A stretch of 32,000 bases of DNA, from the NCBI GenBank assembly GCA_001790095.1, contig MGBH01000001.1, positions 750,001 through 782,000 of the forward strand, written 5' to 3'. Under the pieces are notes generated by a model. It saw only the letters and a program-made list of their open reading frames with translations, made no database searches and was not told where the DNA came from. This document shows positions 5,524 to 32,000 of the stretch, piece after piece. The position numbers and the translations under genes were made by a program. Position 1 is the first letter of the stretch. Every line of letters starts with the position of its first letter. The DNA comes from Candidatus Saccharimonadota bacterium. GTDB taxonomy: Bacteria; Patescibacteriota; Microgenomatia; UBA1406; GWC2-37-13.

Positions 5524-5611
5524 GATCTTCAACTAAGAGTACATCAAAAAAAACGTTAATACAATAGGCAATACCGCCCTTATTTTTATAAATATTGGTT
5601 ATAATAACTAA

Positions 5612-5697
5612 ATGAAACTAAGTATCGATATCGTCAAACTTCCCATGTAGGAAAAAGCATTCTTGTAATAACTGCTTCTTTTCACTATAGAACAAAT
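5612..5697 (+). pseudogene. decayed fragment of the ychF 5' end, preceded by its -10 box at 5600-5605
   Basis: atgaaactaagtatcg is identical to the first 16 nt of ychF at 7344. Similarity continues through the P-loop (ggaaaaag) and a second block (tttcactatagaacaaat vs tttgcactatcgaaccaaat at 7447-7466). It is interrupted by TAG at 5648-5650 and by a ~33-nt deletion. Confidence 0.7.
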
Positions 5698-5986
5698 TTT
5701 TCTGCTATTTGCATTAAAGGGAAATTCGAGTGAAAATAACACAGAATATGATATAGTATAGGCCTATATAGCAACCCAAGCAAGAATCGAATTAGAGCGC
5801 TCTCCCCTTTTTTCTCGACGGTTTGAGGAAGGGTGGGTCATACCTTTTACTCAAAAACCGACCGTAGAAAAACTTCTGACACATCGTGGGTACACTAAAG
5901 AATCAGGTCTTTTTGTCGCAACAACCTATTTTTCTAATAATCCTGCAGGTAGTATCTGGCAATGGCCACAATGGTCACCATCCCGT

Positions 5987-7336
5987 ATGGAAAGTCAAGG
6001 AATGGTAGTTGCCAGATTCAGGCAACGGTTTTATGAAGATCCATTGCGGGATGATCAATTTGTTCTTCAAGGGGGCGGAGATATGGAGCTGAAATTCCAT
6101 CATGACGACCCCGCTCTTTGCAAAAAAGTATCCATCCATATACCCGAGGAAATTGGCATTGAGCAGCTTATGGCATTAAGTCATACTGACAGAATAGGAT
6201 TTCGGAATATCTTGGCTCGGCTTTCACAAGAAACAGGAGAAAATCACATTAATCCCCTTGCTCTGATTGTGCAAACACATAGTGGGTTAGCGCCCTTAGT
6301 CACTCGAATCTCTCAGAGAGATACTTATAAACTGGATCAAGACGGATCAAAAGCTACCATTGATACTGGGTTCTCTTATGGCGCGTATCCTTATCTGCAA
6401 GTTACCAATCCTGTTTTTGGTGCAGTAGTTTTGGAGAAACAACCTGATATTTTACATGTGGAAGTAAAAGCACCAGAGAAGACGGATAGAATTACCACGT
6501 TGCTTAAGGAAATGGAATCTCTGTCAATCGGCAGTAAAGTAAGACCGCGCAAATCATTTGCTCAACTCAGAGAGTCTGCACTTAAAAAAACAGGGAGAAT
6601 TATAAAAGAACACTCTGATCATGAAATTGAGGCAAAACTTAAGGTCGATATAACAAACGGGAAATTAACTCTCGATGACGTTTTAATGCAGCTATACATA
6701 AGCGCAGCATCAAATCGGTTGCCAGGCTTTCGTCTTTCGCCGCAATTTCCAGATATTGCAGTCCGGACGTCGGACAGTGCCCTCTACAGTACCTATGGAT
6801 GGGTAGATAAAAACAACAAAGTACATGAAGTGCTCACTGTTATCCGGGTTGAAGGAAACCCTCCCGTTTTTTGGATGAAAAGAAAAGGAGATCCTCAATC
6901 GACGTCTGCAGACAAAACGATGGTGAGAACAGAAAAAATGGAAATACTCAAAGAACCGCCTGATATGGATGCGATTCTTGTTGATGAGACACAAAAAGCA
7001 GGACAGGCCGTGATCAAAATAGGTAGTTTTAGAAAAAGGAAGATCGCCTTTAAGGTTGAAGAAATAAAAACAGGGAGAATGTTCACCGTATCCCTTGATG
7101 AAGACCGTTTGGAAGGAGCACAAGAGAGCGAACCCCTGAGACAACTGGAGATTGAGTATGCAGAAACACCACAAGAAAATATAGCAGGGATACCATCAGA
7201 CAGAACCATACAACATGCAAGTAATCAATTGCAACTTGCTTTATCGGAATTAAATTTGAACGGGGTAAAACTCACCCCAACTTCAGAGAGGAAAATTGAA
7301 TGGCTTTATACACATTTTCTTTCTCTTACGTTATAA
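5987..7336 (+). CDS. hypothetical protein with a CYTH-like (triphosphate tunnel metalloenzyme-like) C-terminal half
   Basis: HEIEAKLKV matches the ExExK motif (from nt 6620). Later VIRVEGN, WMKRKG, FRKRKIAFKV, TVSLDEDRL and LRQLEIEYAE resemble the charged beta-strand pattern of CYTH domains. The frame is open from 5762 with no ATG/GTG/TTG, so the true N-terminus is uncertain. Confidence 0.6.
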   Translation: MESQGMVVARFRQRFYEDPLRDDQFVLQGGGDMELKFHHDDPALCKKVSIHIPEEIGIEQLMALSHTDRIGFRNILARLSQETGENHINPLALIVQTHSGLAPLVTRISQRDTYKLDQDGSKATIDTGFSYGAYPYLQVTNPVFGAVVLEKQPDILHVEVKAPEKTDRITTLLKEMESLSIGSKVRPRKSFAQLRESALKKTGRIIKEHSDHEIEAKLKVDITNGKLTLDDVLMQLYISAASNRLPGFRLSPQFPDIAVRTSDSALYSTYGWVDKNNKVHEVLTVIRVEGNPPVFWMKRKGDPQSTSADKTMVRTEKMEILKEPPDMDAILVDETQKAGQAVIKIGSFRKRKIAFKVEEIKTGRMFTVSLDEDRLEGAQESEPLRQLEIEYAETPQENIAGIPSDRTIQHASNQLQLALSELNLNGVKLTPTSERKIEWLYTHFLSLTL

Positions 7337-7343
7337 TTGACCC

Positions 7344-8423
7344 ATGAAACTAAGTATCGGAATTGTTGGTCTCCCCAATGTCGGAAAAAGTACTCTTTTT
7401 AATGCGCTTCTCAAAAAACAGGTAGCCGATGCTGCAAATTATCCCTTTTGCACTATCGAACCAAATGTTGGAATCGTTGAAGTACCGGATGAAAGACTTC
7501 CCATATTGGCAAAAATAGTGAAAACAGAGAAAATTGTTCCTGCGGCTGTTGAGTTCTATGATATCGCAGGCATCGTAAAAGGCGCATCAGAAGGTGAAGG
7601 TTTGGGAAATAAATTCCTTTCCCATATCCGCGAAGTATCGGCTATCGTGCATGTAGTGCGACTCTTTGATGATCCAAACGTCATCCATGTGGCCAATAAA
7701 GTGGATCCAAAAAGTGACATGGAAACGATAGATGCAGAGCTTATTTTGGCTGATCTTGAGACATTAAGTAAGCAAAAGGAACCGCGAGGCAATGCGGATA
7801 AAAAAGAACATATACGATATGCAATTATTCAAAGATTTAAGAGTGAATTAAACAAAGGGGTTCCTGCCCGAAATGTAGTAGTAACAGATGAAGAAATACA
7901 AATTATCCGCGAACTTAATCTCCTTACCCTAAAACCAGTTATCTATGCATTTAATGTATCTGAAGAACAGCTTAGTTCAAAAGAAGAAACCATCAAAAAA
8001 ATTCAATCATTGGGAATTAATACTAACTGGCTTTTTTTCAATGCAAAATTGGAAAACGATGTCCTTGCTCTATCTGCTCAAGAGCAAAAAGAATATCTTA
8101 ACCAATATGGACTTGAAGATACGGGTCTCAATCGGCTTATCAAAAAGTCATACGAGATTCTCGGCCTTGTCTCTTTTTTAACCGCTGGAGTTATTGAAGC
8201 AAAAGCATGGACTATCACAAAAGGCACTCTTGCTCCTCAGGCCGCAGGCACAATTCATACAGATTTTGAAAAGAAATTTATAAAGGCTGATATTGTGACT
8301 TATGATGATTTTGTAGCATGTGAAGGCTGGGTCAAAGCACGCGAGACAGGCAAGGTAGTAAGTGCTGGCAAAGATTATATGATGAAAGATGGAGATGTGG
8401 TAGAGTTTAAGGTTGGGTCATGA
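7344..8423 (+). CDS. ychF: ribosome-binding ATPase YchF (Obg-like GTPase family)
   Basis: N-terminus [22 protein letters not shown] (P-loop), [17 protein letters not shown] and a TGS-like C-terminus. TATAAT at 7332-7337 lies 6 nt upstream of the ATG. Confidence 0.93.
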
Positions 8424-8571
8424 AAGACATGTCTACCTAAATTTTAGTGAAGGATATGTATTGTTAAAATTAAATCCAAACATAAATATTAAAATATTTA
8501 TCGAAGGTGAAAAAGATAAAAGAAATTCTATTTTCATAGAGCACATAAGAATTTGTAGTAATATGTAAATA

Positions 8572-10191
8572 ATGTATAAACAACAAAAAATTTGTATCGA
8601 TAAAAAGTTTCTTCAAGTTGTTTTGTTTTTTATTTTATCTTCGACTTTCCTTATTATTCTCTCTGCTTTACTACAGAACACAAACCTTAACATATCAAAA
8701 AAAGCTGCAGAAATCCCCCCACAAATATCTTCAATACAAATGAAGGGTGAAATACTTGAAGATAGAATTATCCAAAATCCCAGTCAATTGGGAGGAATTC
8801 AAAATAAAATGGATCCGAAACAAAAAATAGTTTATGAAACGATTCCAGTAATGTTTGGAGTGTCAAAGCAAGTAATAGTAAATCACTGCGATGAATATAT
8901 AAACAAAAATAGTGAAAGATATACTGACTGGACAAGTCCTGAGATTAAACCTTGTAAATTCATTGAAAAAATGATCCAAAGGGACTTTCAACAATTACAA
9001 AATGACTTTAAGGATACAGGAAAAACCTTCGTCTTTGCAGGAATTGATAAAACATGGGACCAAACAGTAGATCAAAAACTTGACTGTAATCATAATAAAG
9101 CTGGCGGATCTCAATATGTTCCATATAATGATTGCTTTCATAGTGATAAAAGTATTTATGTCACTATTTTATATGCTAAAAACGCTAAAAATTCAGGAGG
9201 AGAGGCTCTTCCATGGAGACATACTATTCGATATGTAGCCCCAGGCAAATTTATCGACGGAAAGGACCACTGGGAGCTACAAGATTTTCATTGGCAACCT
9301 ACTTATGTTCTTACTCATGAAATCGGTCATCTATTCGGTCAATATCATGTTCCTTGGATATTTATGGATTCAAATGAAGTCGTTCCCATATCCTATCCAC
9401 TCTTTTACCAAGGCGATCTTGATCATGATACTTTTGGATATAACAAATCATTAGTAATGACAATTACTCAAAGAGGGAGCCTTAAAAAAAATTCGGAAAT
9501 AATAGCAGAAAGCATTCCTAATACTGTCGAAATAATGTTTTCTGGTTTGCAAAGTGGTCCTTATACTGTTAAACAGTATAAGGTATCCCCCTCCGGATGG
9601 GGTATTAGTAAAATAGAAAAAGAAAATTTTACTGAAAGCAATTATCATGAATCCAGTGCAATTCTTCCACTGACACGAACTGAGATATATCAATCTCCAC
9701 TTTTATTCTTTGAAATAACACAAAATAACAAAAAAAATTATTACTGGTTTAGTATTATGGATGCACATTTCCTCTTTTGGGAAAATCAAACTGAGATAGC
9801 TCAAAAGATTCTTTTACCAATAAAGACTTCTGATAATGCTATACATATAATTCCAAATTCAAACTTAAAATATCGTACAGTTGAATTATTATTCACTCAG
9901 AAAACCAGCGAAGATGTATATTATTTAGTAGATCGATGGCATTTAGATGGAATTCCAGATAGTACCCTAATTAATATTAATACTAATGTACCTGATAGTG
10001 TTTTTATTTTTTTAAGAACATATGTTGGCCATACCACATTGAGTAACTGGATTAGCGCTAAACCACAAGGAGATGTATTAAACTATGGCACAGTTAAAAA
10101 CTGTACAGGTTTAATTCAAAAAGGCAAGTATAATCAAGATATGTGCGAGTTTACAAAAACAGGAAATACAACCTTTGAAATAGATTATTAA
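8572..10191 (+). CDS. membrane-anchored putative metzincin-type zinc metalloprotease (539 aa)
   Basis: N-terminal TM segment. HEIGHLFGQYH fits the metzincin HExxHxxGxxH zinc-binding consensus. The rest is unrecognised. Confidence 0.6.
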   Translation: MYKQQKICIDKKFLQVVLFFILSSTFLIILSALLQNTNLNISKKAAEIPPQISSIQMKGEILEDRIIQNPSQLGGIQNKMDPKQKIVYETIPVMFGVSKQVIVNHCDEYINKNSERYTDWTSPEIKPCKFIEKMIQRDFQQLQNDFKDTGKTFVFAGIDKTWDQTVDQKLDCNHNKAGGSQYVPYNDCFHSDKSIYVTILYAKNAKNSGGEALPWRHTIRYVAPGKFIDGKDHWELQDFHWQPTYVLTHEIGHLFGQYHVPWIFMDSNEVVPISYPLFYQGDLDHDTFGYNKSLVMTITQRGSLKKNSEIIAESIPNTVEIMFSGLQSGPYTVKQYKVSPSGWGISKIEKENFTESNYHESSAILPLTRTEIYQSPLLFFEITQNNKKNYYWFSIMDAHFLFWENQTEIAQKILLPIKTSDNAIHIIPNSNLKYRTVELLFTQKTSEDVYYLVDRWHLDGIPDSTLININTNVPDSVFIFLRTYVGHTTLSNWISAKPQGDVLNYGTVKNCTGLIQKGKYNQDMCEFTKTGNTTFEIDY

Positions 10192-11700: not shown

Positions 11701-11725
11701 TCGTTTAGATTGTCACAAAGACCTT

Positions 11726-11744
11726 GTACACTTCCGAAGTGTAC
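11726..11744 (+). repeat. REP-like palindromic hairpin, copy 1 (GTACACTTCCGAAGTGTAC)
   Basis: Exact 19-mer, also at 16343 and 28692 and as its reverse complement at 29568. Lies between the convergent def and rpmB genes. Confidence 0.85.
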
Positions 11745-11821
11745 TGGATTGCTACAACGGCTTAAAACACATATAAAACAAATTGTTCATAGAAATTAAG
11801 AATTTAGTTATTGTTAAGAAG

Positions 11822-12943: not shown

Positions 12944-13015
12944 GCCTTGATAGTTTAGTGGTAAAACAAGCCCTTGGTAAGGGCTAGAGTGTGGGTCCGA
13001 TTCCCACTCAAGGCT
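12944..13015 (+). tRNA. tRNA-Thr (anticodon GGU)
   Basis: Hand-folded cloverleaf. Acceptor GCCTTGA/TCAAGGC, D stem GTTT/AAAC, anticodon stem AGCCC/GGGCT with loop TTGGTAA, T stem GTGGG/CCCAC. No encoded CCA. Confidence 0.85.
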
Positions 13016-13583
13016 CAAGTTCTAGTATGCTTGCCATATGATAACTCACAATAGCAGCCGAAACGATCACATTTAGGCTTCGATTGATCCCCCACATAGG
13101 TATCTCAGCTATATGATCGGCTAAGGCCAAGGTTTCTTTCGTTATACCTGAGGTTTCGTTACCGACCATCAAAGCAACTGGGAAATGGTAACTGATCTGC
13201 GTATAGGGAAGAGAGTGAGAATCTTGCTCAATAGCAATAATTTGAATTTTGTTATTTGGATTTTGTTTGGAATTTGGATTTTGAAATTTGGATCTTAAAT
13301 CTGCAACAGCCTCATGGGCTGTTTTTTTATACTCCCACGGTACCACTTTGTAGGTCCCGATTGAAGCCTTTTTAATCTTGGCATTTGGTGGGATTTCCAT
13401 CTCTCCACAAAGATACATCTTTGTAACTCCTATGGCATCTGCAAGTCGGAAAAGCCCTCCCACATTATAAGTATCATAAACGTTTTCAAGAATAAAGTAG
13501 ATAGGGTGTCGTTTGAGGCTAGCAGCCCGCTTTTTAGCTTCATCATCGTCGACCAAACGAAGTTCTTGAGCGTTTAATTTCAT
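13008..13583 (-). CDS. SpoU/TrmH-family RNA 2'-O-methyltransferase
   Basis: NVGGLFRLADAIGV, GNETSGI and IPMWGINRSLNVIVSAAI are SPOUT motifs. Start moved to ATG 13583 (MKLNAQEL), which has TATAAT (reverse complement of 13590-13595) 6 nt upstream. Confidence 0.85.
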   Translation of the reverse strand: MKLNAQELRLVDDDEAKKRAASLKRHPIYFILENVYDTYNVGGLFRLADAIGVTKMYLCGEMEIPPNAKIKKASIGTYKVVPWEYKKTAHEAVADLRSKFQNPNSKQNPNNKIQIIAIEQDSHSLPYTQISYHFPVALMVGNETSGITKETLALADHIAEIPMWGINRSLNVIVSAAIVSYHMASILELEP

Positions 13584-13708
13584 ATTGTTATTATAACCCA
13601 AATTACAAATTTTCAATTCGCAATTTTCAATCAATATTAATTGATCATTGATTCAATGAAAATTCATTGAAAACTGAAACTTGTAAATTGAAGATTATAA
13701 TCCTATAG

Positions 13709-13737
13709 TTGACAAATCAAAAGTCTTATAGTATAAT
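13709..13737 (+). promoter_or_regulatory. consensus sigma70-type promoter (TTGACA-17 nt-TATAAT)
   Basis: TTGACA at 13709-13714 and TATAAT at 13732-13737. ATG 13745 lies 7 nt downstream of the -10 box. Confidence 0.7.
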
Positions 13738-13744
13738 ACCAATT

Positions 13745-14425
13745 ATGAAAACCAACAAACTTTTATTCTCTGTTTTTCTATCAACTACCATCTACTTGCT
13801 ACTTACCACAGGCGCTCTTGCCGATTACGGACAATATGGCCAATATAGTAGCGAACCTGCTCCTTCTGCCTCAATCCTTATTGACAAGACAGTCGGAAAA
13901 CCAGACGGCACTGTCACTAAGGGAGGAGTAATCAATATACAGTATGTAGATAATCTTTCACCCTCTGATGTCAGGTTTCGCCCGGGTGAACAGGTGATGT
14001 TTAAACTGAGAGTTAAAAACACCTCAAATGTTACGCTTAATAATGTTATGGTCAATGACATCGTCCCCTCATATGTAGAACCTATTGAAGGACCGGGGAT
14101 GTTTGATGCGGTTACTCGAGTAATCTCTTTCAACGCCGGTTCGTTTGCACCTGATGAAGAAAAGACATTTACAATAAAGATGCAGTTATATGGTCAGGAC
14201 AAGCTTCCCACAGATAAAGGACTCTTTTGCTTGATCAATAAATCCCGAGCTTATAATGAACTAGCCTCTGATGAAGATACCGCACAGTTTTGCGTAGAAA
14301 AAGAAGTGATCGGAGTTGTTTCTACTCCAAAGGCAGGACCTGAGATGGGTACCTTGCTTCTTGGAGCTCAGGCTATGCTTGTTGGACTCGGATTTAGCCT
14401 CAAAAAGATAACAAAACGAACATAA
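13745..14425 (+). CDS. secreted surface protein with a DUF11-like repeat domain and a C-terminal anchor-type signal
   Basis: Signal/TM segment KLLFSVFLSTTIYLLLTTGALA. FKLRVKNTSNVTLNNVMVNDIVP resembles the DUF11 fold signature. The C-terminus is TPKAGPE, then a hydrophobic stretch, then KKITKRT. The track start (TTG 13709) is the -35 box itself, so I use ATG 13745. Confidence 0.7.
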   Translation: MKTNKLLFSVFLSTTIYLLLTTGALADYGQYGQYSSEPAPSASILIDKTVGKPDGTVTKGGVINIQYVDNLSPSDVRFRPGEQVMFKLRVKNTSNVTLNNVMVNDIVPSYVEPIEGPGMFDAVTRVISFNAGSFAPDEEKTFTIKMQLYGQDKLPTDKGLFCLINKSRAYNELASDEDTAQFCVEKEVIGVVSTPKAGPEMGTLLLGAQAMLVGLGFSLKKITKRT

Positions 14426-15249: not shown

Positions 15250-15474
15250 ATGAATAAAAAAATAGCCCTTATTACCCTTCTCCAGAATAGCCTTATGATC
15301 CCGGATAAAGCAAAGCTCAAGATCATCGCAAAGCTGCGTAAGCTCCCCGACTCCCAGATAGACGCACTTGGAAAACTTTTAGCTCAGGAGCGCAAGTATA
15401 TGATCACCCATAAAGATACGATAATCAAACAAACAAAGTTGCTTTTAGATACTCTTGCGTTAGCCACAAAATAA
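15250..15474 (+). CDS. hypothetical small protein (74 aa)
   Basis: ATG starts 2 nt after the previous stop (operon-like). Predicted helical. Confidence 0.5.
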   Translation: MNKKIALITLLQNSLMIPDKAKLKIIAKLRKLPDSQIDALGKLLAQERKYMITHKDTIIKQTKLLLDTLALATK

Positions 15475-15482
15475 AGATTATC

Positions 15483-16307
15483 ATGTCCATCAAACCTTCA
15501 GAAGAAGTAATAAACAGTCTCCTTTCCGAGGCTGAAAAAGAAATAACCAAAGAAGAGAATATGACTATACAGACAGATAATGCAATTGTACGTGAAATTG
15601 AGATAATTGAAGGCAACAAGACAGATACTGAACTTCTTATCCAACGCGACATCCTTGAGGGCGAGATTGATCTTACCCGTAAAATGGAGGCTGAGCTTTG
15701 GAATGGAGCCCATATCATCTGTCTTCCTTTTTTTTACGAAACATACACCATACAGGCACAGATTGAACCTAAGTTACAGACAAAATACAATCAAGCCACC
15801 ATCGCCACCTGCAGCAGATTTAAAGCTTTAGGGAAAAATGGTCTTGCCATGATTACGCCCATCATTGATTTCATCCGGAATTATCGTGATTTTACTCCTA
15901 CCGATCGGAAAGAGCTTGATAGGGAGCTTTTAAACCGTGTCATCATGTGGTTAAAGCTAGATATCATGCCTGAATCTCGACCACGTCCCCTTTTGACCCA
16001 ATCCCTTGAAAAGGTGATAATCGATATTGAAGAAGCTGAAGCTGTGTTTGCACGTAGCCCATCTGAGGCTAGTTATATGGAGGGTGAGATACACCTTGCA
16101 GCTATAAAGGCCGTACGTAACTCAGCTTTCTTACCCTCACTTGTCAAGATCAGACTGTTGCAATCGTTAAAACAGCTTACTAGGGAAGAGATATCTGACA
16201 TAGGCACATTTCTTTTATGGGAGATACGCAAAAGCAGCCATCACCATAACATGCTTCTTTACACGATGCTTAAGATCTTCAAGAATCTCAGTTTTAGCCT
16301 CAAATAA
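15483..16307 (+). CDS. hypothetical protein (274 aa)
   Basis: Complete ORF, third in an apparent operon running 14487-16307. No recognisable motif. Confidence 0.6.
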   Translation: MSIKPSEEVINSLLSEAEKEITKEENMTIQTDNAIVREIEIIEGNKTDTELLIQRDILEGEIDLTRKMEAELWNGAHIICLPFFYETYTIQAQIEPKLQTKYNQATIATCSRFKALGKNGLAMITPIIDFIRNYRDFTPTDRKELDRELLNRVIMWLKLDIMPESRPRPLLTQSLEKVIIDIEEAEAVFARSPSEASYMEGEIHLAAIKAVRNSAFLPSLVKIRLLQSLKQLTREEISDIGTFLLWEIRKSSHHHNMLLYTMLKIFKNLSFSLK

Positions 16308-16342
16308 CCTCAAAAGAGGACTTAGATTGCTACATCGCTCTT

Positions 16343-16361
16343 GTACACTTCCGAAGTGTAC
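16343..16361 (+). repeat. REP-like palindromic hairpin, copy 2
   Basis: Exact GTACACTTCCGAAGTGTAC, 36 nt after the stop at 16307. Confidence 0.85.
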
Positions 16362-16503
16362 TTGGGCGATATAATAACCCAAACCTGTGGTAAAAGTTAT
16401 TCTCTTCCTAATACGAAACAAATTAACATAGAGTAATTCGAAGAGGGATAGTGTTTACAACATGTGGATAAGTATAGGTAGATTATCTATATGCAAACTA
16501 TAG

Positions 16504-16532
16504 TTGACAAATGGAATGTCATGTTGTATACT
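16504..16532 (+). promoter_or_regulatory. consensus sigma70-type promoter (TTGACA-17 nt-TATACT)
   Basis: TTGACA at 16504-16509 and TATACT at 16527-16532. The 15-mer CTATAGTTGACAAAT (16498-16512) is identical to 13703-13717. Confidence 0.6.
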
Positions 16533-16539
16533 ATAGGCT

Positions 16540-17442
16540 ATGATTATATTGCAATTAGGGTGCAGTATACAATCTGCACCGCATAACCCACAAAAAGCTT
16601 TCCACGTAAACGCTCTCCTTTTAAAAAAAATTACAGTTACATAACGCCATCTCCCTATCTTTAGGGAGGAAATGGCACCCTAATCACTGCCATTTCCTCC
16701 ATAGAGATACGAAGAGATATACGCACTTTTTAAATATGAGTGGGTCGCAATGAACCTTGGAAGGAGTGGATACATGTCCCCTGCTTCCTGGGCTCAAACC
16801 CCAGGTAGTATCCCCATGAGGGGGTGGAAATAGCTTTCACCCAATCCTCATCGTAGGATTAACCGTGATGAGGAGTCTCTTGGCCAATAGCTGGCTAAGG
16901 AATAAATAAGACTCACATCGCTCTTTGAAAATTTGGGTTTAGGAAAATTTACTTTTCACTTTGATCTATGTGGCACATTTGCTGTGTCTCTGGTATATCC
17001 GCCGTCGCATAAAGCTGTGGCGGACGAAGAAGGGTGAAAGGTGGGAATTCATCTCCTTTTTCTGTGAAAGATAATGTACTTGTCATGCTGAATTTATTTC
17101 AGCATCTGATTAGTCACTATCAAGTAAACAGAGATTGGCTTGCACCTTATATATAAATAGCATTATGTATAGAGTGCAAGTCAATCCGAGAAAGAAAGGA
17201 GAGAAGAAGAAAAAAAAGGAAAATGATGAGAACTTATAGGGAGTAGTTTTTACCCCTAGCCCGTAAAAGCGAGTCGCCATCCGGCACTCGTCTGAAATTT
17301 GCGAAGCCTTGTATGGGCTAAAGCAATGGGCAAACGAAAAAGCACAAAGTAGGAGGCTCTATGCCGACTGAAATATGCTTTGGAGAGAAAAACAGAATCT
17401 AAGAAAAGAACTAACAATCAACTCAAAAAGGAGTAAGAAACC
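16540..17442 (+). ncRNA. candidate large structured RNA or long structured leader (unclassified)
   Basis: No ORF of 60 aa or more on either strand between 16422 and 17442. Lies downstream of the consensus promoter. At least ten hand-found stem-loops, including two 13-bp stems. I cannot assign a family. Confidence 0.3.
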
Positions 17443-17772
17443 ATGTTAAAGCAACCGGTAATTCGTTTTATGATTGGTTCGGGTTTGGGCCTTTTCTTTT
17501 TGCTCAGCTTTCAGCTTGAGCAATGGAAAAACTGGTTCATCGGTGGCGTTCTGGTCATAATCGTGTTTGGCTTCATCGGTCTCATGACCACGCCTCGCAC
17601 TCACACGACCACGCCTCCCGTCTCAACCCGCTCCATCGATCCGGATACAATCAAACGCTACACCATCGAAATGCTGCGCGAAATCCGGGTTGACACCACG
17701 TCCGGGCGGATTGAGATCAACCAAAACCTGGAAGAAGCCGTAGAAACGTTCATCCGCAATATCTTCAGCTAA
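17443..17772 (+). CDS. small membrane protein (109 aa, two predicted TM segments)
   Basis: AAGGAG (17428-17433) lies 9 nt upstream of the ATG. Hydrophobic N-terminal half. GC clearly above that of the flanking genome. Confidence 0.65.
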   Translation: MLKQPVIRFMIGSGLGLFFLLSFQLEQWKNWFIGGVLVIIVFGFIGLMTTPRTHTTTPPVSTRSIDPDTIKRYTIEMLREIRVDTTSGRIEINQNLEEAVETFIRNIFS

Positions 17773-17782
17773 GGAGACAACC

Positions 17783-18970
17783 ATGAAGAAAATCTGCAAA
17801 ACCAAGAAGTACATCGCCCTGGCCGCATTGTTTGTTTTGCTGGCCATTGTGGCCTCGGCCTGCGTAGGTGGCGCCGCCCCTGGTGCCTCCCCTGCTGCCG
17901 CGACCACGACCGCATCGGCCCCTGCCGCTGCTGCCAATACCGAAACCCCCACCCCTACCCCCACCCAGACCCAGACCAGCACCGCAACCTCGGCTGCCGG
18001 GACAAGCACCCCCATGTCGCCTTTGGCGACGGTGGTTGAAGCTTTGTCTCCGCTGCCCTCGGAAACGCCGAGCAACACGCCGGTCCCGACCAACACGCCG
18101 GTCCCGACCAACACGCCGGTCCCGACCAACACGCCGGTCCCGACCAACACAGCCGCGCCGACCGCGACCATCGCTCCGGTTTGCCCCCTGGCAACCCCCG
18201 GTGTAACCGCTGTCCCACCGTGCGCAACGCCTGTGCCGAGCACCCCTGTGCCCACCACCACCGCAGTGCCAGCCTACGCCTGCCCTGAGATTCCATACAC
18301 GAGCTTGGAGATGATTCAAGATATTATTGATACAGCGGCCCAAAACCGCCCAAGCACAAACGGTGTGGAAGAGCTCAACAGGTGGTTGAACGACTTCGTT
18401 GTCACGCCGCTCTCAAGCGTTCCTGGCCGCCGCGACTTTGGCCCCGGAGAAGTTGACTTCTGCAATGTTTCGCTGGTCATCGGTCAGTTCCCGACCAGGG
18501 ATACATGCGAAAGCGACTTTCTGCCCATCGGTGGATTCGTCACCGGCTACCCGGACGCAGAGGAATATGGACTATACACTGTTTCTGGCAAACACCAGAT
18601 GACTAACGGTGGGTTCACATTCAACCTGCTACCGAACGCCCTAGACGCCATCCTCGATACTGCAGCAGCCAACAAGCCCGCCACGTTTGAAGAGCAAAAG
18701 ATCTGGTTCAACAACCTGGTCTTGGCCGTGGACAACTTCACCGGGGACGATGCAAACCGCTTCAACGCCCGCTCCGTGTACGGAGGCGTTGGTTCGCTGA
18801 ACTGGAACGGCTATGACACTAACCTGTCCTACGCCTGCCAGTATCAACCGATTGAGCGGCTCAGCGTGCCTGGCTATGCTGGCTTTTTCCTGTTCTGGGG
18901 CAACTGGACGTTCGCTAACCCGAGCGCCTCATTCCCCGACTGGGAGTACATCCAGACCGGCATCAAATAA
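17783..18970 (+). CDS. GC-rich putative lipoprotein with an Ala/Pro/Thr-rich linker and a C-terminal domain of unknown function
   Basis: AAGGAG (17771-17776) lies 6 nt upstream of the ATG. Signal peptide ending LAIVASAC (lipobox-like). NTPVPT x4 linker. Roughly 230-aa C-terminal region with an internal duplication. Confidence 0.75.
   Translation: MKKICKTKKYIALAALFVLLAIVASACVGGAAPGASPAAATTTASAPAAAANTETPTPTPTQTQTSTATSAAGTSTPMSPLATVVEALSPLPSETPSNTPVPTNTPVPTNTPVPTNTPVPTNTAAPTATIAPVCPLATPGVTAVPPCATPVPSTPVPTTTAVPAYACPEIPYTSLEMIQDIIDTAAQNRPSTNGVEELNRWLNDFVVTPLSSVPGRRDFGPGEVDFCNVSLVIGQFPTRDTCESDFLPIGGFVTGYPDAEEYGLYTVSGKHQMTNGGFTFNLLPNALDAILDTAAANKPATFEEQKIWFNNLVLAVDNFTGDDANRFNARSVYGGVGSLNWNGYDTNLSYACQYQPIERLSVPGYAGFFLFWGNWTFANPSASFPDWEYIQTGIK
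18074..18163 (+). repeat. 18-bp in-frame tandem repeat: 4 exact copies plus 1 degenerate copy
   Basis: AACACGCCGGTCCCGACC occupies 18074-18145, followed by AACACAGCCGCGCCGACC. It encodes NTPVPT repeats. Confidence 0.95.
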
Positions 18971-19249
18971 CCCGCCCAAAAAACGTGCGGAAGGAGGTGA
19001 TTGTTGATCATTACCTCACCTAAACCCAAAAGGAGGGATACAGAAGCCTACAAAGCTTCCCGGGACCCTCCAAAGCATAAGGTAATCAAGTTTGTCTGTC
19101 ACACGACAAACTAGTATTGTAAAAGTCTCTACGAGACCCGAGTTTGATGACATTCGTCATCCGATCTTTCCGATCGTACAAAAAACTCACAATATACACC
19201 TTATGCTTTTCCCTATGACTACAATGCGTTGTGGTCAGAGAGAAAAGCT

Positions 19250-20215
19250 ATGAAAAATCAAACCCAAAAAAACAATTCCTCCGTCGCTAAAGCTATGGAG
19301 GACAAGCCGCTGGTTTCAGTCATCATACCCGTATTTAACGGTTCTCCTTTTTTGGAGGAAACCATTACGTCTGTATTTAACAGCACCTATAAAAACATTG
19401 AGGTACTTCTTATAGATGACGGATCAACCGACAAAAGTAAAGAGTTGTGTCATAGGTTGGAAAAAAGATACAAAAAAGTGCGTTTTTACTCTTTTCCAAA
19501 AAATAAAGGTTTGGGAAGAGTATTGAACTTTGCCCTTCGTCAGGCTCACGGCGAACTCATCTGTCGGATCAATCAAGATGACAGGATGCTGCGTTATCGC
19601 ATACAGACACAGGTCGATTTTATGGACAAAAATCCCGAGATAGTAGCTGTGGGATCATCTATCAAGCTTTTTGAAAACAATGGCAAAAAACAAATCGTAC
19701 ATTTTTTACAGCGGGATCAGGAGATCAAAAAGATGTGGCACATCGTAAGCCCATTTGCAGATCCGTCTGTGATGTATAGAAAAAGTGTTGCCCGTAAGGT
19801 CGGAGGATACAAACAAGAGTTCTGGCCGGGTGATGATACTCATTTATGGGTACGCATGGGTACTAGGGGCAAGCTTGCCAATATTGATAAACCACTCGTG
19901 GAGGTACGATATCATAGTAAAGCAGCCTCTGTCAGATACTTTAAAAAGTTGACTGTTGTCACTTATAAACTCCACAGATGGATGCATAATCATGTGCAAA
20001 AAGCAGCGTTACCCGTACAGCTCTTTTGGATAGGACAACTGATAGCTGGTCTTTTATTACCTCCTGATATGAATTGGAATATATATCGGATATTAAAGAG
20101 AGTGATTTATTTTGCTGCAGGAGTCGCCCATTTTTTGCGCAATCTTAAAGTAAAAAATACGATCGTAGCAAAAGTAATCCCCCACCCTATGGCGCTTAAC
20201 CGCTCCGGCCAGTAA
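19250..20215 (+). CDS. family 2 glycosyltransferase
   Basis: VSVIIPVFNGSPFLEETITSVFNSTYKNIEVLLIDDGSTDKS and a DD motif are typical of GT2. I prefer ATG 19250 over the track's TTG 19229. Confidence 0.85.
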   Translation: MKNQTQKNNSSVAKAMEDKPLVSVIIPVFNGSPFLEETITSVFNSTYKNIEVLLIDDGSTDKSKELCHRLEKRYKKVRFYSFPKNKGLGRVLNFALRQAHGELICRINQDDRMLRYRIQTQVDFMDKNPEIVAVGSSIKLFENNGKKQIVHFLQRDQEIKKMWHIVSPFADPSVMYRKSVARKVGGYKQEFWPGDDTHLWVRMGTRGKLANIDKPLVEVRYHSKAASVRYFKKLTVVTYKLHRWMHNHVQKAALPVQLFWIGQLIAGLLLPPDMNWNIYRILKRVIYFAAGVAHFLRNLKVKNTIVAKVIPHPMALNRSGQ

Positions 20216-28688: not shown

Positions 28689-28713
28689 CTAGTACACTTC
28701 CGAAGTGTACTAG
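28689..28713 (+). repeat. REP-like palindromic hairpin, copy 3 (extended stem CTAGTACAC...GTGTACTAG)
   Basis: The core 19-mer at 28692-28710 is exact. Lies 21 nt after the helicase stop and 146 nt upstream of the RAYT-like gene. Confidence 0.85.
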
Positions 28714-28855: not shown

Positions 28856-29542
28856 ATGCCTTTAAGAGAAGATGTGTTTGAGAATAATGGTTATTATCAT
28901 ATCTTTGATAAAACAATTGATGACATAATGGTGTTTTCTTCTCCAAAGATCGCTTACGAATTTATCAGCACTTTTTTATATTATCGTTCCAATAGAGCAA
29001 GTTTACGATATTCAAAGTACAAAAAACTAGTTCCTACCCTCAAAAGAAATCTAGAAAGATTAATTTCCTACGGAAAATACTTCAAAGTAAATATTTTAGC
29101 CTATTGTATCATGCCAAATCACTATCACCTGCTTCTACAACAAACTCACCATGGCGGAATACAAACATTTATGGCAAACACCCTAAACTCTATCACTAGA
29201 TTTTATAATTTATTACATAACAGAAAGGGGCCAATCTTTCTTACTCAGTTCAAATCAAAAAAGATACATACTGAGGAACAGCTTGTTTACGTTTCTCGAT
29301 ATATCCACACAAACCCTTTTGCGAGTTCCATCGTTAAAAGAAAGGGTGATATTTTTGTTTATCCATATTCTTCCATTCACTCTTACCTGAGAAATAGTAA
29401 CAATCAATACATCATTACAAAAAACAAAATCCTTACATATTTTGGGAATGATAAGGAAACGTATATGGATTTCATTATCAAAAATGCAGATAGACAAAAG
29501 GAGATTGAACATTTAAAATACACAAAGAATTGGCTAAAGTAA
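28856..29542 (+). CDS. IS200/IS605-family Y1 (HUH) transposase, REP-associated (RAYT)-like
   Basis: HUH motif in MPNHYHLLLQ. Catalytic-Tyr region YVSRYIHTNPF. Size (228 aa) and flanking palindromes fit the RAYT arrangement. Confidence 0.75.
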   Translation: MPLREDVFENNGYYHIFDKTIDDIMVFSSPKIAYEFISTFLYYRSNRASLRYSKYKKLVPTLKRNLERLISYGKYFKVNILAYCIMPNHYHLLLQQTHHGGIQTFMANTLNSITRFYNLLHNRKGPIFLTQFKSKKIHTEEQLVYVSRYIHTNPFASSIVKRKGDIFVYPYSSIHSYLRNSNNQYIITKNKILTYFGNDKETYMDFIIKNADRQKEIEHLKYTKNWLK

Positions 29543-29567
29543 TTACCTAGACTATTGTAACAATCCA

Positions 29568-29586
29568 GTACACTTCGGAAGTGTAC
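29568..29586 (-). repeat. REP-like palindromic hairpin, copy 4 (inverted)
   Basis: GTACACTTCGGAAGTGTAC is the exact reverse complement of the other three copies. Flank similarity to copy 1 extends to about 35 nt. Confidence 0.85.
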
Positions 29587-29714
29587 AAGCGCAATGATAT
29601 AGGCCAAAGTACATAATAGAATAATTATCTTATGGTAAGGCTCCAGATATACAATTTTGTATCACAGAAGCTCTCGAAGTAATTAGCAAAATATAATAGC
29701 CTTTCTACTATCAC

Positions 29715-29933: not shown

Positions 29934-29954
29934 ATAATATATAATCTTCAATAT

Positions 29955-32000
29955 ATGCCTCTCTTTTCTCATCTACAGATCCGTAATCCCAAAGAAGACG
30001 AAACACCCATTGAGTCAGCGACCCAGATATTTGCATCGGTTCTTCCTTATCCTTTCCTTCCCCTATTAAAACGTACCTTGTTTGTCCATCCCAAGACCTA
30101 TGCGTTTGAGATCTATCTTATCAATCAGCTTGTTTATTTTTACGTAACTACACCCGCAGTAAGTGAAACTTTGATCCAAAGTCTTGTAACATCCTCTTTT
30201 CCCTCTTCAAAAATCACAAAAACGACTGACCCCATGGAAATTATCTTTAAATCAAAACATCTTTCAGTCGGCGAGGTAATCTTAAATTCATATTCATACC
30301 TACCTATTAAAACTTACTTTGATTTTAAAGACGTTGATCCTTTATCAGCTCTGGTGGGATTTTTGTCCAAACAACCTCCTCATCTCAAAATGGCAGTGCA
30401 GATCGTCGTCACACCCCCCTATTTTGCATGGCAAGACCGGGCAGTAAAAGCTGCAGGGCTTCAGGTATATGATGAAAACGCCTTGAAATATACGATGAAT
30501 CCACAGAAGATGGTCATCATGAAAAAAGCCACATTTCAAGGGGGTAAAGTAGGTATCCGTCTTTTGGCTGGCACAAATACACCTCATTTTGATCCTATGC
30601 CCTATGTGTCAAATCTTGCTGGTACATTTGGAAGTTTTTCGCTTGGTGAAGGTAATCAGTTTGTATTCAAACGCCCCATTTTTTTCAAAGATTGGCTTCT
30701 CAAACGCGTAAAAGAAAGGTCTCTGTCTTACTTTGAACACAAAAATCAAATCCTAAACTCTCAAGAGCTAGCCACACTCTGGCATCCGCCAGGAATACTT
30801 CTTGCTGGTATTAAAAATATTTCATGGGGTAAAACATTGATTGGAGAACCGCCAGAAAATCTGCCTGTTGCAGACCGTGCAACTGATGAAGAAAAAAAGT
30901 CCATTAACTTCTTTGCCAAGACTGAGTTTCGTAATAAAGATACTATCTTTGGTATCAAAGATGCAGATCGTCGCAAACATGTATATATCATCGGGAAAAC
31001 AGGAGCGGGTAAATCTACTCTCATCGCCAATATGGCGATAGATGATATCAGGAAAGGTCGAGGTATTGGTATTGTTGATCCGCACGGTGATCTTTGTGAG
31101 ACCATACTTGACTTTATACCTAAACGTCGTCTTAACGATGTAGTATACCTTGAACCCTTTGATCTGGAACGGCCCTTTTCCCTCAATGTTCTTGAGATCA
31201 AAAATAAACAGCATAAAGACCTTATCTCATCAGGTATCGTATCTATTTTCAGCAAACTCTATAAAGACAGCTGGGGTCCACGACTTGAATATATCCTACG
31301 CAACGTCATCCTTACGCTTCTTGAGACACCGGGAAGTTCACTTCCTGATGTCTTATCTCTTTTAGCTCATGCTGATTATCGAAAAAAGGTGGTATCTGCA
31401 CTTACAGATCCTGTCCTTAAAAGTTTCTGGGAAAAAGAATTCGCCAAGATGCCCGACCGTTTGAAAGCCGAGGCTATCTCCCCTATCCAAAACAAAGTCG
31501 GACAGTTTGTAACCTCACGCATGATACGCAATATCGTTGGTAAACCAAAGTCATCCATAAATCTTGAAGAGATCATGAACTCAGGTAAAATCCTGCTGTT
31601 GAATCTGTCACAGGGCAAGCTTGGAGAAGATAATGCGGCTTTGCTTGGAGCTATGCTCATAACCCAAATACAGCTTGCTGCCATGAATAGAAGTTTCATG
31701 AAAGAGGAAGAACGTAAAGACTTTTTTCTTTATGTAGATGAGTTCCAGAATTTTGCAACAACATCATTTATCAAAATTTTGTCTGAAGCTCGCAAATACC
31801 GGCTTGCTCTTACTCTAACTAACCAGTATATCGAACAGCTTGAAGAAGATATCGAACGCGCAATATTTGGTAATGTAGGCACCCTTATTTCTTTTGTCGT
31901 TGGCGCCAGAGATGCGTATGCACTTTCTAAAGAATTCGGGGAGCTATATGAAGAAAGCGATTTGGTAGCACTTGGCAAATTTGAAACCGTCATGAAACTA
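29955..32000 (+). CDS. VirD4/TraG/TraD-like (type IV coupling protein family) P-loop ATPase, 3' end outside the window
   Basis: Not in the ORF track because there is no stop inside the window. My hand translation from ATG 29955 is open for 682 codons. Walker A is IIGKTGAGKST (nt ~30990). Walker B-like FFLYVDEFQNF. LTNQY follows. Confidence 0.7.
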   Translation, partial: MPLFSHLQIRNPKEDETPIESATQIFASVLPYPFLPLLKRTLFVHPKTYAFEIYLINQLVYFYVTTPAVSETLIQSLVTSSFPSSKITKTTDPMEIIFKSKHLSVGEVILNSYSYLPIKTYFDFKDVDPLSALVGFLSKQPPHLKMAVQIVVTPPYFAWQDRAVKAAGLQVYDENALKYTMNPQKMVIMKKATFQGGKVGIRLLAGTNTPHFDPMPYVSNLAGTFGSFSLGEGNQFVFKRPIFFKDWLLKRVKERSLSYFEHKNQILNSQELATLWHPPGILLAGIKNISWGKTLIGEPPENLPVADRATDEEKKSINFFAKTEFRNKDTIFGIKDADRRKHVYIIGKTGAGKSTLIANMAIDDIRKGRGIGIVDPHGDLCETILDFIPKRRLNDVVYLEPFDLERPFSLNVLEIKNKQHKDLISSGIVSIFSKLYKDSWGPRLEYILRNVILTLLETPGSSLPDVLSLLAHADYRKKVVSALTDPVLKSFWEKEFAKMPDRLKAEAISPIQNKVGQFVTSRMIRNIVGKPKSSINLEEIMNSGKILLLNLSQGKLGEDNAALLGAMLITQIQLAAMNRSFMKEEERKDFFLYVDEFQNFATTSFIKILSEARKYRLALTLTNQYIEQLEEDIERAIFGNVGTLISFVVGARDAYALSKEFGELYEESDLVALGKFETVMKL

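Follow-up and report, generated by a model that had tools for sequence, protein, structure and literature searches.

Locus organization

The window analyzed here, i.e., the whole 32,000-nt stretch of contig MGBH01000001.1, contains a 1,135-nt intergenic gap (16308-17442) between a gene for a 274-amino acid (aa) protein, which ends at 16307, and a gene for a 109-aa protein, which starts at 17443. This gap hosts the subject of the present study, a real, evolutionarily conserved, and highly folded RNA of ~650 to 900 nt, which is followed by a GC-rich cassette of membrane-protein and lipoprotein genes and by a second structured element (Table 1). Our open reading frame (ORF) scan confirmed a preliminary description of the sequence in finding no ORF of at least 60 aa on either strand within 16422-17442, and each of the six frames of the gap contains 12 to 25 stop codons. 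All other intergenic gaps in the window are at most 454 nt long; two more long ones, 5533-5986 and 29934-30344, span 454 and 411 nt, respectively, at a GC content of 0.36. The proposal that GC is raised above background held true relative to most other intergenic gaps (0.22 to 0.37 for gaps of more than 30 nt without a tRNA, except two at 0.44 to 0.45, i.e., 18971-19228, which contains the second structured element, and 31256-31375) but not relative to the window as a whole, which the region barely exceeds (0.41 vs 0.38).

Table 1. Features of the RNA locus, with L numbers denoting homologous loci (coordinates are window positions)
Feature	Position	Strand	Description
Promoter, sigma-70-type	16504..16532	+	TTGACA-17-TATACT; predicted start ~16539-16541
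Conserved structured RNA	16539..17203	+	Part in common with the nearest relative, L022; patchy conservation, ending at ~17190-17203
5′ terminal segment	16539..16580	+	First ~35 nt identical in L022
Long hairpin B	16650..16715	+	Perfect 13-bp stem 16665-77/16688-700
Core	16754..16947	+	Helices P1-P6, closing helices, and block E; covariance model R1; compensatory changes
Hairpin P4	16823..16841	+	GGUGGAA-AUAGC-UUUCACC; 4/7 pairs compensatory; loop AAUAGCU conserved
14-mer	16864..16877	+	CGUGAUGAGGAGUC; leading C in 7/9 loci
Hairpin P6	16879..16899	+	CUUGGCCA-AUAGC-UGGCUAAG; 4/8 pairs compensatory; loop as in P4
Block E	16920..16944	+	GCUCUUUGAAAAUUUGGGUUUAGGA; nearly invariant in nine loci
Hairpin F	16998..17024	+	Lineage-specific, common only to the window and L021; stem verified
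Block G	17032..17060	+	GGGUGAAAGGUGGGAA, then CU tract UCUCCUUUU; kept in L014, L017, and L028
Hairpin H	17133..17186	+	Variable GC-rich outer stem, conserved AU-rich inner stem
Shine-Dalgarno-like sequence	17194..17203	+	GAAAGGAGAG (GAAAGGAG); after hairpin H in 6 loci
Spacer	17204..17442	+	Poorly conserved; true ribosome-binding site AAGGAG at 17428-17433
GC-rich cassette	17443..18970	+	109-aa two-transmembrane (TM) protein, 17443-17772; 395-aa lipoprotein, 17783-18970
Second structured element	18985..19228	+	Conserved, non-coding; between the cassette and a GT2 (glycosyltransferase) gene

Conservation and covariation of the RNA

Syntenic loci were reached via homologs of the upstream 274-aa protein (47 to 66% identity), and four further loci were retrieved from genome and metagenome collections with a degenerate pattern on an invariant stretch of the RNA; the collection scans relied on one strict exact pattern, and the distribution of the family is known to that extent. 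The RNA is present at nine loci, i.e., in the window, L014 (identical to L015), L016, L017, L020, L021, L022, L023, and L028. In comparison, seven syntenic loci (L011, L013, L018, L019, L031, L032, and L033) lack both the gap and the element, an absence confirmed with the nhmmer profile as well as with the covariance model; the genes of a further contig, L012, are arranged as in L011. The whole-transcript nhmmer profile recovered 16539-17437 (E = 3e-156) and no other match in the window, while covariance model R1 scored 150 to 202 bits across the nine loci, with the window core at 198.6 bits (E = 2.7e-45). The 169-nt stretch 16778-16945 is 77 to 83% identical to genomes of 53 to 56% GC, compared with 65 to 73% for the flanking coding sequences. 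Contigs of a Rifle groundwater metagenome carry the locus as well, but at 99.9 to 100% identity across the gap they add no comparative information. The source is the uncultured groundwater organism Candidatus Roizmanbacteria bacterium RIFOXYB2_FULL_38_10, which belongs to the candidate phyla radiation. A blastn search of the region against phage and plasmid collections returned no match. Several hits of the pattern scans were discarded as chance matches, namely, L027 from IMG/VR, which lies inside a phage gene, and three of five metagenome matches (L024-26), which lie inside a coding sequence. Two of the RNA-bearing loci, L020 (CAZVQS010000001.1) and L021 (CAZGYB010000004.1), come from metagenome-assembled genomes titled "uncultured Gammaproteobacteria," a label that is probably wrong; L021 has a DUF11 gene homologous to that of the window, and L020 has a 274-aa ORF at the matching position.

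Comparison of the nine loci revealed modular covarying helices on the (+) strand over ~650 nt in the window and up to ~800 nt in its relatives. For the core, the nine-sequence alignment (window 16752-16947; 199 positions) yielded 36 pairs by RNAalifold, 12 of them with compensatory double changes. In a formal count, 93.2% of the core cells were paired and 30 cells were changed on both sides, a result equaled by none of 500 shuffles; in controls in which the 3′ partners were slid by 1 to 3 columns, pairing was 30 to 56%, with 3 to 6 compensated pairs. Once the alignment was refitted with a covariance model, these values rose to 94.8% paired and 33 cells with compensatory changes. Compensatory base changes, for which a check had been proposed at the outset, are thus indeed carried by the homologs. 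The strongest core helices are the two hairpins with AAUAGCU loops (P4 and P6), each with four covarying pairs, and 97% of the P6 cells are paired in the model-fitted alignment. Because conserved G-U pairs occur on the (+) strand only, we conclude that this strand is the RNA.

Adjacent to P6, all nine loci carry the 13-mer GUGAUGAGGAGUC (16865-16877) unchanged, and its GAUG and GUC pair with an equally invariant CAUC (16916-19) and GAC (16910-12). By hand reading, the GAGG of the invariant strand can also pair with an upstream CCUC (16846-49), which would form a pseudoknot. A reading of the UGAUGA in this strand as a k-turn or C/D box was rejected by hand, since the partner strand lacks the required GA. 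Block E is preceded by an insertion of ~75 nt in L016 and L021. In L021, helix P1 is replaced at its usual place by GATTGCAACT, repeated three times in tandem (~2290-2330, [−] strand).

The folding energies agree with a structured transcript: the minimum free energy (MFE) of 16540-17442 gave z = −8.25 relative to shuffles for the (+) strand and −5.64 for the (−) strand, and z = −10.70 was obtained for the conserved part, 16539-17203. Two homologous transcripts gave z = −10.4 and −11.9, in comparison with +2.19 for a coding control of 903 nt. Together with the covariation and the conserved promoter (see below), this supports the initial suggestion of a large structured RNA behind the promoter at 16504, for which three roles had been named: an ncRNA, a regulatory leader to the GC-rich genes, or a piece of an acquired element. 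Of the ten stems listed in that description, nine proved exact, while the tenth (17270-78/17283-90) has unequal arms and two non-pairs. The proposed extent of 16540-17442 is structured, but the part conserved relative to L022, the nearest relative, and across all lineages ends near 17203. As originally described, no U-tract follows any of these stems, and a scan of 16540-17442 found no terminator-like site on the (+) strand.

Conserved promoter and modular domains

The promoter had been described as near-perfect, and we found that it matches the consensus at 11 of 12 positions and is the top-scoring site in 15400-19400. Its box TTGACAAAT..TATACTATAGG (TTGACAAATGTCTTATAGTATGTTATACTATAGG) is located 229 to 462 nt 5′ of the core in L014, L017, L020, L021, L022, L023, and L028 and was also found in a partial locus, L029, which holds the promoter only; it was not found in L016. 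Since the promoter is kept in position, the window transcript should start near 16539. Downstream of it, an ordered series of approximately 10 blocks follows, whose order and spacing are kept in the nine loci. A DUF11/CLIPPER surface-protein operon always lies 5′ of the RNA and has the same promoter box; in the window, the DUF11 operon promoter (13703-13747) has the box CTATAGTTGACAAAT in common with the RNA promoter, and its −10 element ends 6 nt before ATG 13745, suggesting a leaderless mRNA. In the subclade of L014, L017, and L028, a segment that the window lacks follows the 274-aa gene and precedes the RNA promoter; it contains a second promoter (TTGATT-17-TATACT) and a called 56-aa ORF (L014 7166-7336, L028 3409-3579). 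Such 5′ promoters lie at gap offsets 204 in L017, 173 in L028, and 112 in L029.

At the 5′ end, the stem of the hairpin 16559-65/16574-80 was verified, but it is not preserved in L022. A conserved small ORF was considered here (a leaderless 34-aa ORF at 16540) and rejected, as L014, L017, and L028 lack it and no frame is kept consistently. Hairpin B has an equivalent, a long purine/pyrimidine hairpin, at the same place in L014, L016, L017, L020, L022, and L028; the pair counts understate its conservation because the MAFFT alignment is offset across two subtypes.

In the 3′ domain, 11 of the 21 pairs of hairpin H show compensatory changes among six loci. The Shine-Dalgarno (SD)-like GAAAGGAG that follows it has no conserved start codon or ORF on its 3′ side. 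In the MFE fold, the CU tract of block G (17052-17060) is paired with the SD-like sequence (17195-17202), and by hand reading it matches the true ribosome-binding site (17425-17433) as a complement equally well. An intrinsic terminator after hairpin H was rejected as a conserved feature, given that U-runs of 3 to 5 occur in only three of six loci (L022, L014, and L028). No similarity between the window and L022 was found beyond ~17200. In comparison, conservation within the subclade of L014, L017, and L028 reaches almost to the ribosome-binding site, and the consensus fold of these three loci with L020 (63 to 79% identity) comprises 176 pairs, 25 of them compensated. A domain of ~75 nt is closed by CUUAUCCU/AGGAUAAG in L014, L017, and L028 and by CUUAUUCA/UGAAUAAG in L023. 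Finally, in L017 the core occurs a second time, incomplete and degenerate (8272-8563; 25.8 bits, E = 3.5e-4), in which block E and the next domain are clearer, and which lies 5′ of a second GC-rich secreted-protein gene (8693-9643).

GC-rich cassette and second structured element

The cassette has a GC content of 0.58, in comparison with 0.38 for the rest of the window. Its 395-aa lipoprotein has a lipobox and five tandem PTNTPV repeats (18068-18155); apart from itself, a search with this protein returned only Pro/Thr-linker matches, and a search with the 109-aa protein found only itself, with no Pfam assignment. We found that the GC maximum (0.57 to 0.665) lies directly after the RNA in all nine loci, in genomes of 0.38 to 0.57 GC, and that no such peak exists in the RNA-less loci; i.e., RNA and GC-rich cassette are both present in the nine loci and both absent from the seven syntenic ones. 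At each of the nine loci, the genes 3′ of the RNA are on the same strand and begin 160 to 500 nt beyond block E. They are non-orthologous between loci and comprise a two-TM protein with a lipoprotein, collagen-like proteins, and PT-rich lipoproteins. A small TM protein gene comes next after the RNA in the window, L028, L017, and L023 and is missing in L014, L016, and L021; the two-TM proteins of the window and L028 are homologous (29% identity, E = 8e-16). In consensus scans of the (+) strand, no promoter was detected within 16545-18970 and no terminator-like site from the RNA start to 17476, a position already within the first gene. The cassette is also where many public assemblies end.

On the 3′ side of the cassette, the second element has 57 predicted pairs, of which 17 are compensated among the window, L014, L017, and L020; its long-range helix AGCAUGAGG/CCUCAUGCU becomes AGCAUAAGG/CCUUAUGCU in the window. 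It is non-coding because one-base indels break every reading frame. The element opens with GGAAGGAGGUGAU, which is folded into a hairpin and is presumably complementary to the 3′ end of 16S rRNA. It is absent from L016, L021, L022, and L023, and L028 ends inside the cassette.

Among the sizeable ORFs of the window, Pfam revealed no integrase, recombinase, or reverse transcriptase at the locus, and the only transposase-like ORF (Y1_Tnp, 28856-29542) is 11 kb from the RNA. No template/variable repeat pairs of the type found in diversity-generating retroelements (DGRs) or retrons were found between the RNA and the cassette. Accordingly, a retron, a DGR, an IS110 bridge RNA, an IS605 omega RNA, and a group II intron were rejected, as no reverse transcriptase, recombinase, or TnpB/IscB adjoins the RNA. 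Elsewhere in the window, a palindrome, GTACACTTCCGAAGTGTAC, occurs just after stop codons at 11723-11745, 16341-16362, 28689-28711, and 29555-29587, with two inverted copies flanking the IS200-like Y1 transposase ORF at 28856-29542 (PF01797). This looks like an arrangement of repetitive extragenic palindromes (REPs) with their associated tyrosine transposase (RAYT), or the palindromes may be operon-end hairpins.

Comparison with known RNA families

The preliminary description recognized no known RNA family by eye, and Rfam 15 likewise gave no match in the RNA: at the gathering threshold, only tRNAs were found in the window and the eight homologous loci, and no match was obtained to OLE, GOLLD, ROOL, HEARO, raiA, RNase P, SRP, 6S, tmRNA, riboswitches, or group I or II introns. 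With E-values of up to 5 to 10, searches of the RNA of the window, L017, and L021 returned only scattered hairpins of the miRNA or snoRNA type, with no family recurring. Transfer-messenger RNA (tmRNA), permuted or not, was rejected, as ARAGORN detected only tRNA-Thr (12944-13016) in the whole window. The universally conserved regions of RNase P RNA, which form P4 of that molecule, are of the GAGGAAAGUC and ACAGAAnnnGGCUUA types; RNase P RNA was rejected, since no model matched and L014, L020, and L028 do not keep the two similar-looking strings (17032-17045 and 17129-17142). A decayed protein gene, the other check proposed at the outset, was rejected as well: a six-frame Pfam scan was empty, translated similarity between loci falls in all three frames in stop-interrupted pieces of at most 48 aa, and neither the translated searches nor the stop counts reveal a degraded gene.

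The drum motif (RF02958) partially resembles L017 in sequence (5928-6036; GGGUUAUGCGAUAAACC...CCGAAAGGAAACGC). It was rejected because its score of 26.5 bits, against a gathering threshold of 43, was reached in L017 only and the matched stretch covaries as another hairpin; drum was absent from L014 and L028 at E-values of up to 0.5 and from the window at up to 5. A 3′ terminator has been described for this motif (PMC5737381), whereas none was found in the scanned window.

Three groups of known RNAs resemble the present one in architecture or setting. The OLE RNA of the Bacillota, which forms a ribonucleoprotein with OapA, OapB, and OapC, has a length of ~600 nt and adjoins a small transmembrane protein gene, oapA (PMC12265935, PMC9723947). 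Our RNA resembles it in size, in its many short covarying helices between highly conserved single strands, in its restriction to one lineage, and, though not in every locus, in its position directly 5′ of a small TM protein gene on the same strand. Nevertheless, OLE (RF01071) gave no match at any threshold used, the host belongs to the candidate phyla radiation (CPR) rather than to extremophilic Bacillota, no Oap homologs were identified, the neighboring membrane protein is not universal, and the downstream genes are hypervariable GC-rich lipoprotein genes. GOLLD and ROOL are large ornate RNAs whose biochemical function is unknown (PMC12286853, PMC5737381). The present RNA is similarly large, with an ornate multi-domain covarying structure, but had no Rfam match to either family. 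GOLLD and ROOL typically occur in prophages or close to tRNAs and are not known to depend on a particular gene downstream, unlike the present RNA, which has a fixed chromosomal place after the DUF11 operon and before membrane-protein genes. Among leaders of envelope genes and related elements, the EAR RNA of the Bacillus eps operon, the put RNA of phage HK022, and the STAB-SD stabilizer of Bacillus thuringiensis cry3A are 10 to 120 nt long. The RNA of the window is likewise structured and 5′ of surface-component genes, with which it is predicted to be co-transcribed, and its GAAAGGAG (17194-17203) is, as in STAB-SD, far 5′ of any start codon; however, it measures 650 to 800 nt with a complex core and has no Rfam similarity to these elements. 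In full text, the literature available to us contained no description of such an RNA for CPR, Roizmanbacteria, Microgenomates, or Patescibacteria.

Interpretation and alternative explanations

The explanation we favor, on which we are about evenly poised between belief and doubt, is that the RNA represents an uncatalogued family of large ornate structured RNAs in the Candidatus Roizmanbacteria clade (CPR/Microgenomates), which forms the 5′ part of a surface-protein mRNA and acts in cis. Under this explanation, the RNA would be made as the 5′ part of one transcript with the downstream membrane-protein and lipoprotein genes. As expected of a cis-acting leader, it is on the same strand as the following gene in all nine loci, and in the window neither a promoter- nor a terminator-like site lies between them. 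Acting in cis on the cassette mRNA, it may stabilize this mRNA, as the ORF-less GAAAGGAG and the parallel with STAB-SD suggest, or it may gate transcription elongation or translation of the fast-evolving, compositionally foreign surface-protein cassette, which the second element (18985-19228) would close on its 3′ side. The fit of the CU tract to both the SD-like decoy and the true ribosome-binding site makes a decoy/anti-SD switch plausible in the predicted fold. The invariant junction may be the binding site for a protein or ligand.

Several points weigh against this explanation. The start and end of the transcript and its co-transcription with the cassette are all predictions from sequence. 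The core is located ~500 nt from the start codon, a long distance by the standards of classical riboswitches. The downstream genes have no coherent function, with only membrane/lipoprotein signals and high GC in common, and since their products are not orthologs, they do not point to any one ligand or pathway. L022 does not share the 240-nt spacer, and a 3′ end just after hairpin H may have escaped our scan, as terminators in CPR may differ from the model used; the U-runs of 3 to 5 in L022, L014, and L028 lie at this very place. The comparison includes nine sequences in all, of which those of L014 and L020 are close to each other, and the long-range helices and the candidate pseudoknot show one-sided changes or invariant pairs only.

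The main rival, which we regard as possible without being persuaded of it, is a stand-alone, trans-acting, OLE-like RNA or ribonucleoprotein (RNP) that would be ended or processed near hairpin H and work alongside membrane proteins, with the two-TM protein as a candidate partner. A length of ~650 nt, ornate modules, gain and loss between lineages, and invariant single strands are typical of OLE, GOLLD, and ROOL; moreover, conservation of the RNA exceeds that of the proteins on both flanks, and relative to L022 it ends right after hairpin H. The small TM protein encoded next to it in four loci parallels OLE and oapA (PMC12265935, PMC9723947), but this protein is missing in L014, L016, and L021, no conserved terminator or U-tract follows hairpin H, conservation among L014, L017, and L028 runs almost to the ribosome-binding site, and the search for promoters gave none that would serve the downstream genes separately. 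An explanation that we consider unlikely treats the RNA as the non-coding frame of an exchangeable cassette locus, the conserved flanks being recombination or integration sites or an RNA-gene landing pad, between which foreign GC-rich genes for surface proteins would be taken up or exchanged. The cassettes are indeed foreign in composition, with the same absolute GC (0.57 to 0.66) in genomes of 0.38 to 0.57, and are non-orthologous orphans with conserved structured DNA on both sides, while public assemblies often break inside them. GAAAGGAGGUGAU-type sequences also occur at both cassette borders, but there are no direct repeats beyond this SD-like 12-13-mer, which we take to be the complement of the 16S rRNA 3′ end. 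Further, no integrase, recombinase, or reverse transcriptase is present at the locus, L016, L021, L022, and L023 lack the 3′ element, and the covariation reflects selection on RNA pairing, not only on DNA sites; with cassette homologs of the window and L028 only 29% identical, no recent transfer is seen.

That the region is a chance or mixed set of REP-type palindromes, terminators, or several small RNAs, or the remnant of a decayed gene, is highly improbable and already largely refuted. Although there are many simple hairpins, a well-folding (−) strand (z = −5.64), a REP-like palindrome at 16341-16362, and an unconserved stretch at 17204-17442, approximately 10 blocks recur in order and spacing behind one promoter in nine loci, no further copy of any hairpin exists in the rest of the window, and the long-range pairings GAUG/CAUC and GUC/GAC are invariant. 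No six-frame Pfam match was obtained, and the translated similarity is short, stop-interrupted, and spread over all three frames. We give hardly any credence to a divergent member of a known family that the models missed (RNase P, tmRNA, SRP, 6S, OLE, GOLLD, ROOL, or drum). By eye, GGGUGAAAGGUGGG (17032-17045) and ACAGAGAUUGGCUU (17129-17142) resemble conserved RNase P RNA regions, though they are not conserved in the family; a T-loop-like hairpin (16787-16805) and the sub-threshold partial drum match in L017 also point in this direction. However, no Rfam 15 family reached its threshold in the RNA of the window or of the eight other loci and none recurred at lenient E-values, ARAGORN found no tmRNA, and the drum-like stretch folds differently. 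Besides, an essential RNA would not vanish from syntenic relatives together with its neighbors.

Implications for CPR biology

Large structured bacterial RNAs are rare, and the best known of them, OLE, GOLLD, and ROOL, each opened new biochemistry. In concept, the present RNA belongs with these large ornate RNAs and with long structured leaders. What is new here is the CPR lineage and the presence of two structured elements, one on each side of a hypervariable surface-protein cassette. More speculatively, a CPR-specific large ornate RNA and the second element, bracketing a hypervariable, foreign surface-lipoprotein cassette, might constitute the RNA part of a system devoted to the expression, localization, or exchange of host-interaction proteins in these episymbionts; versions of such a system could be an OLE-like membrane RNP or an RNA-defined cassette locus. 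To our knowledge, no RNA-based system of this kind has been described in CPR.

The CPR accounts for a large share of bacterial diversity and comprises bacteria with tiny genomes and symbiotic lifestyles. A typical CPR genome is ~1 Mb in size, in which an RNA of 650 to 900 nt and a 240-nt element are costly, implying an important function. Covariance model R1 is ready for mapping the family across metagenomes. The membrane proteins and lipoproteins to which the RNA is strictly linked are fast-evolving, GC-rich orphans, and this link points to the cell surface and the host interface. It also offers a handle on the control or diversification of surface proteins by CPR cells.

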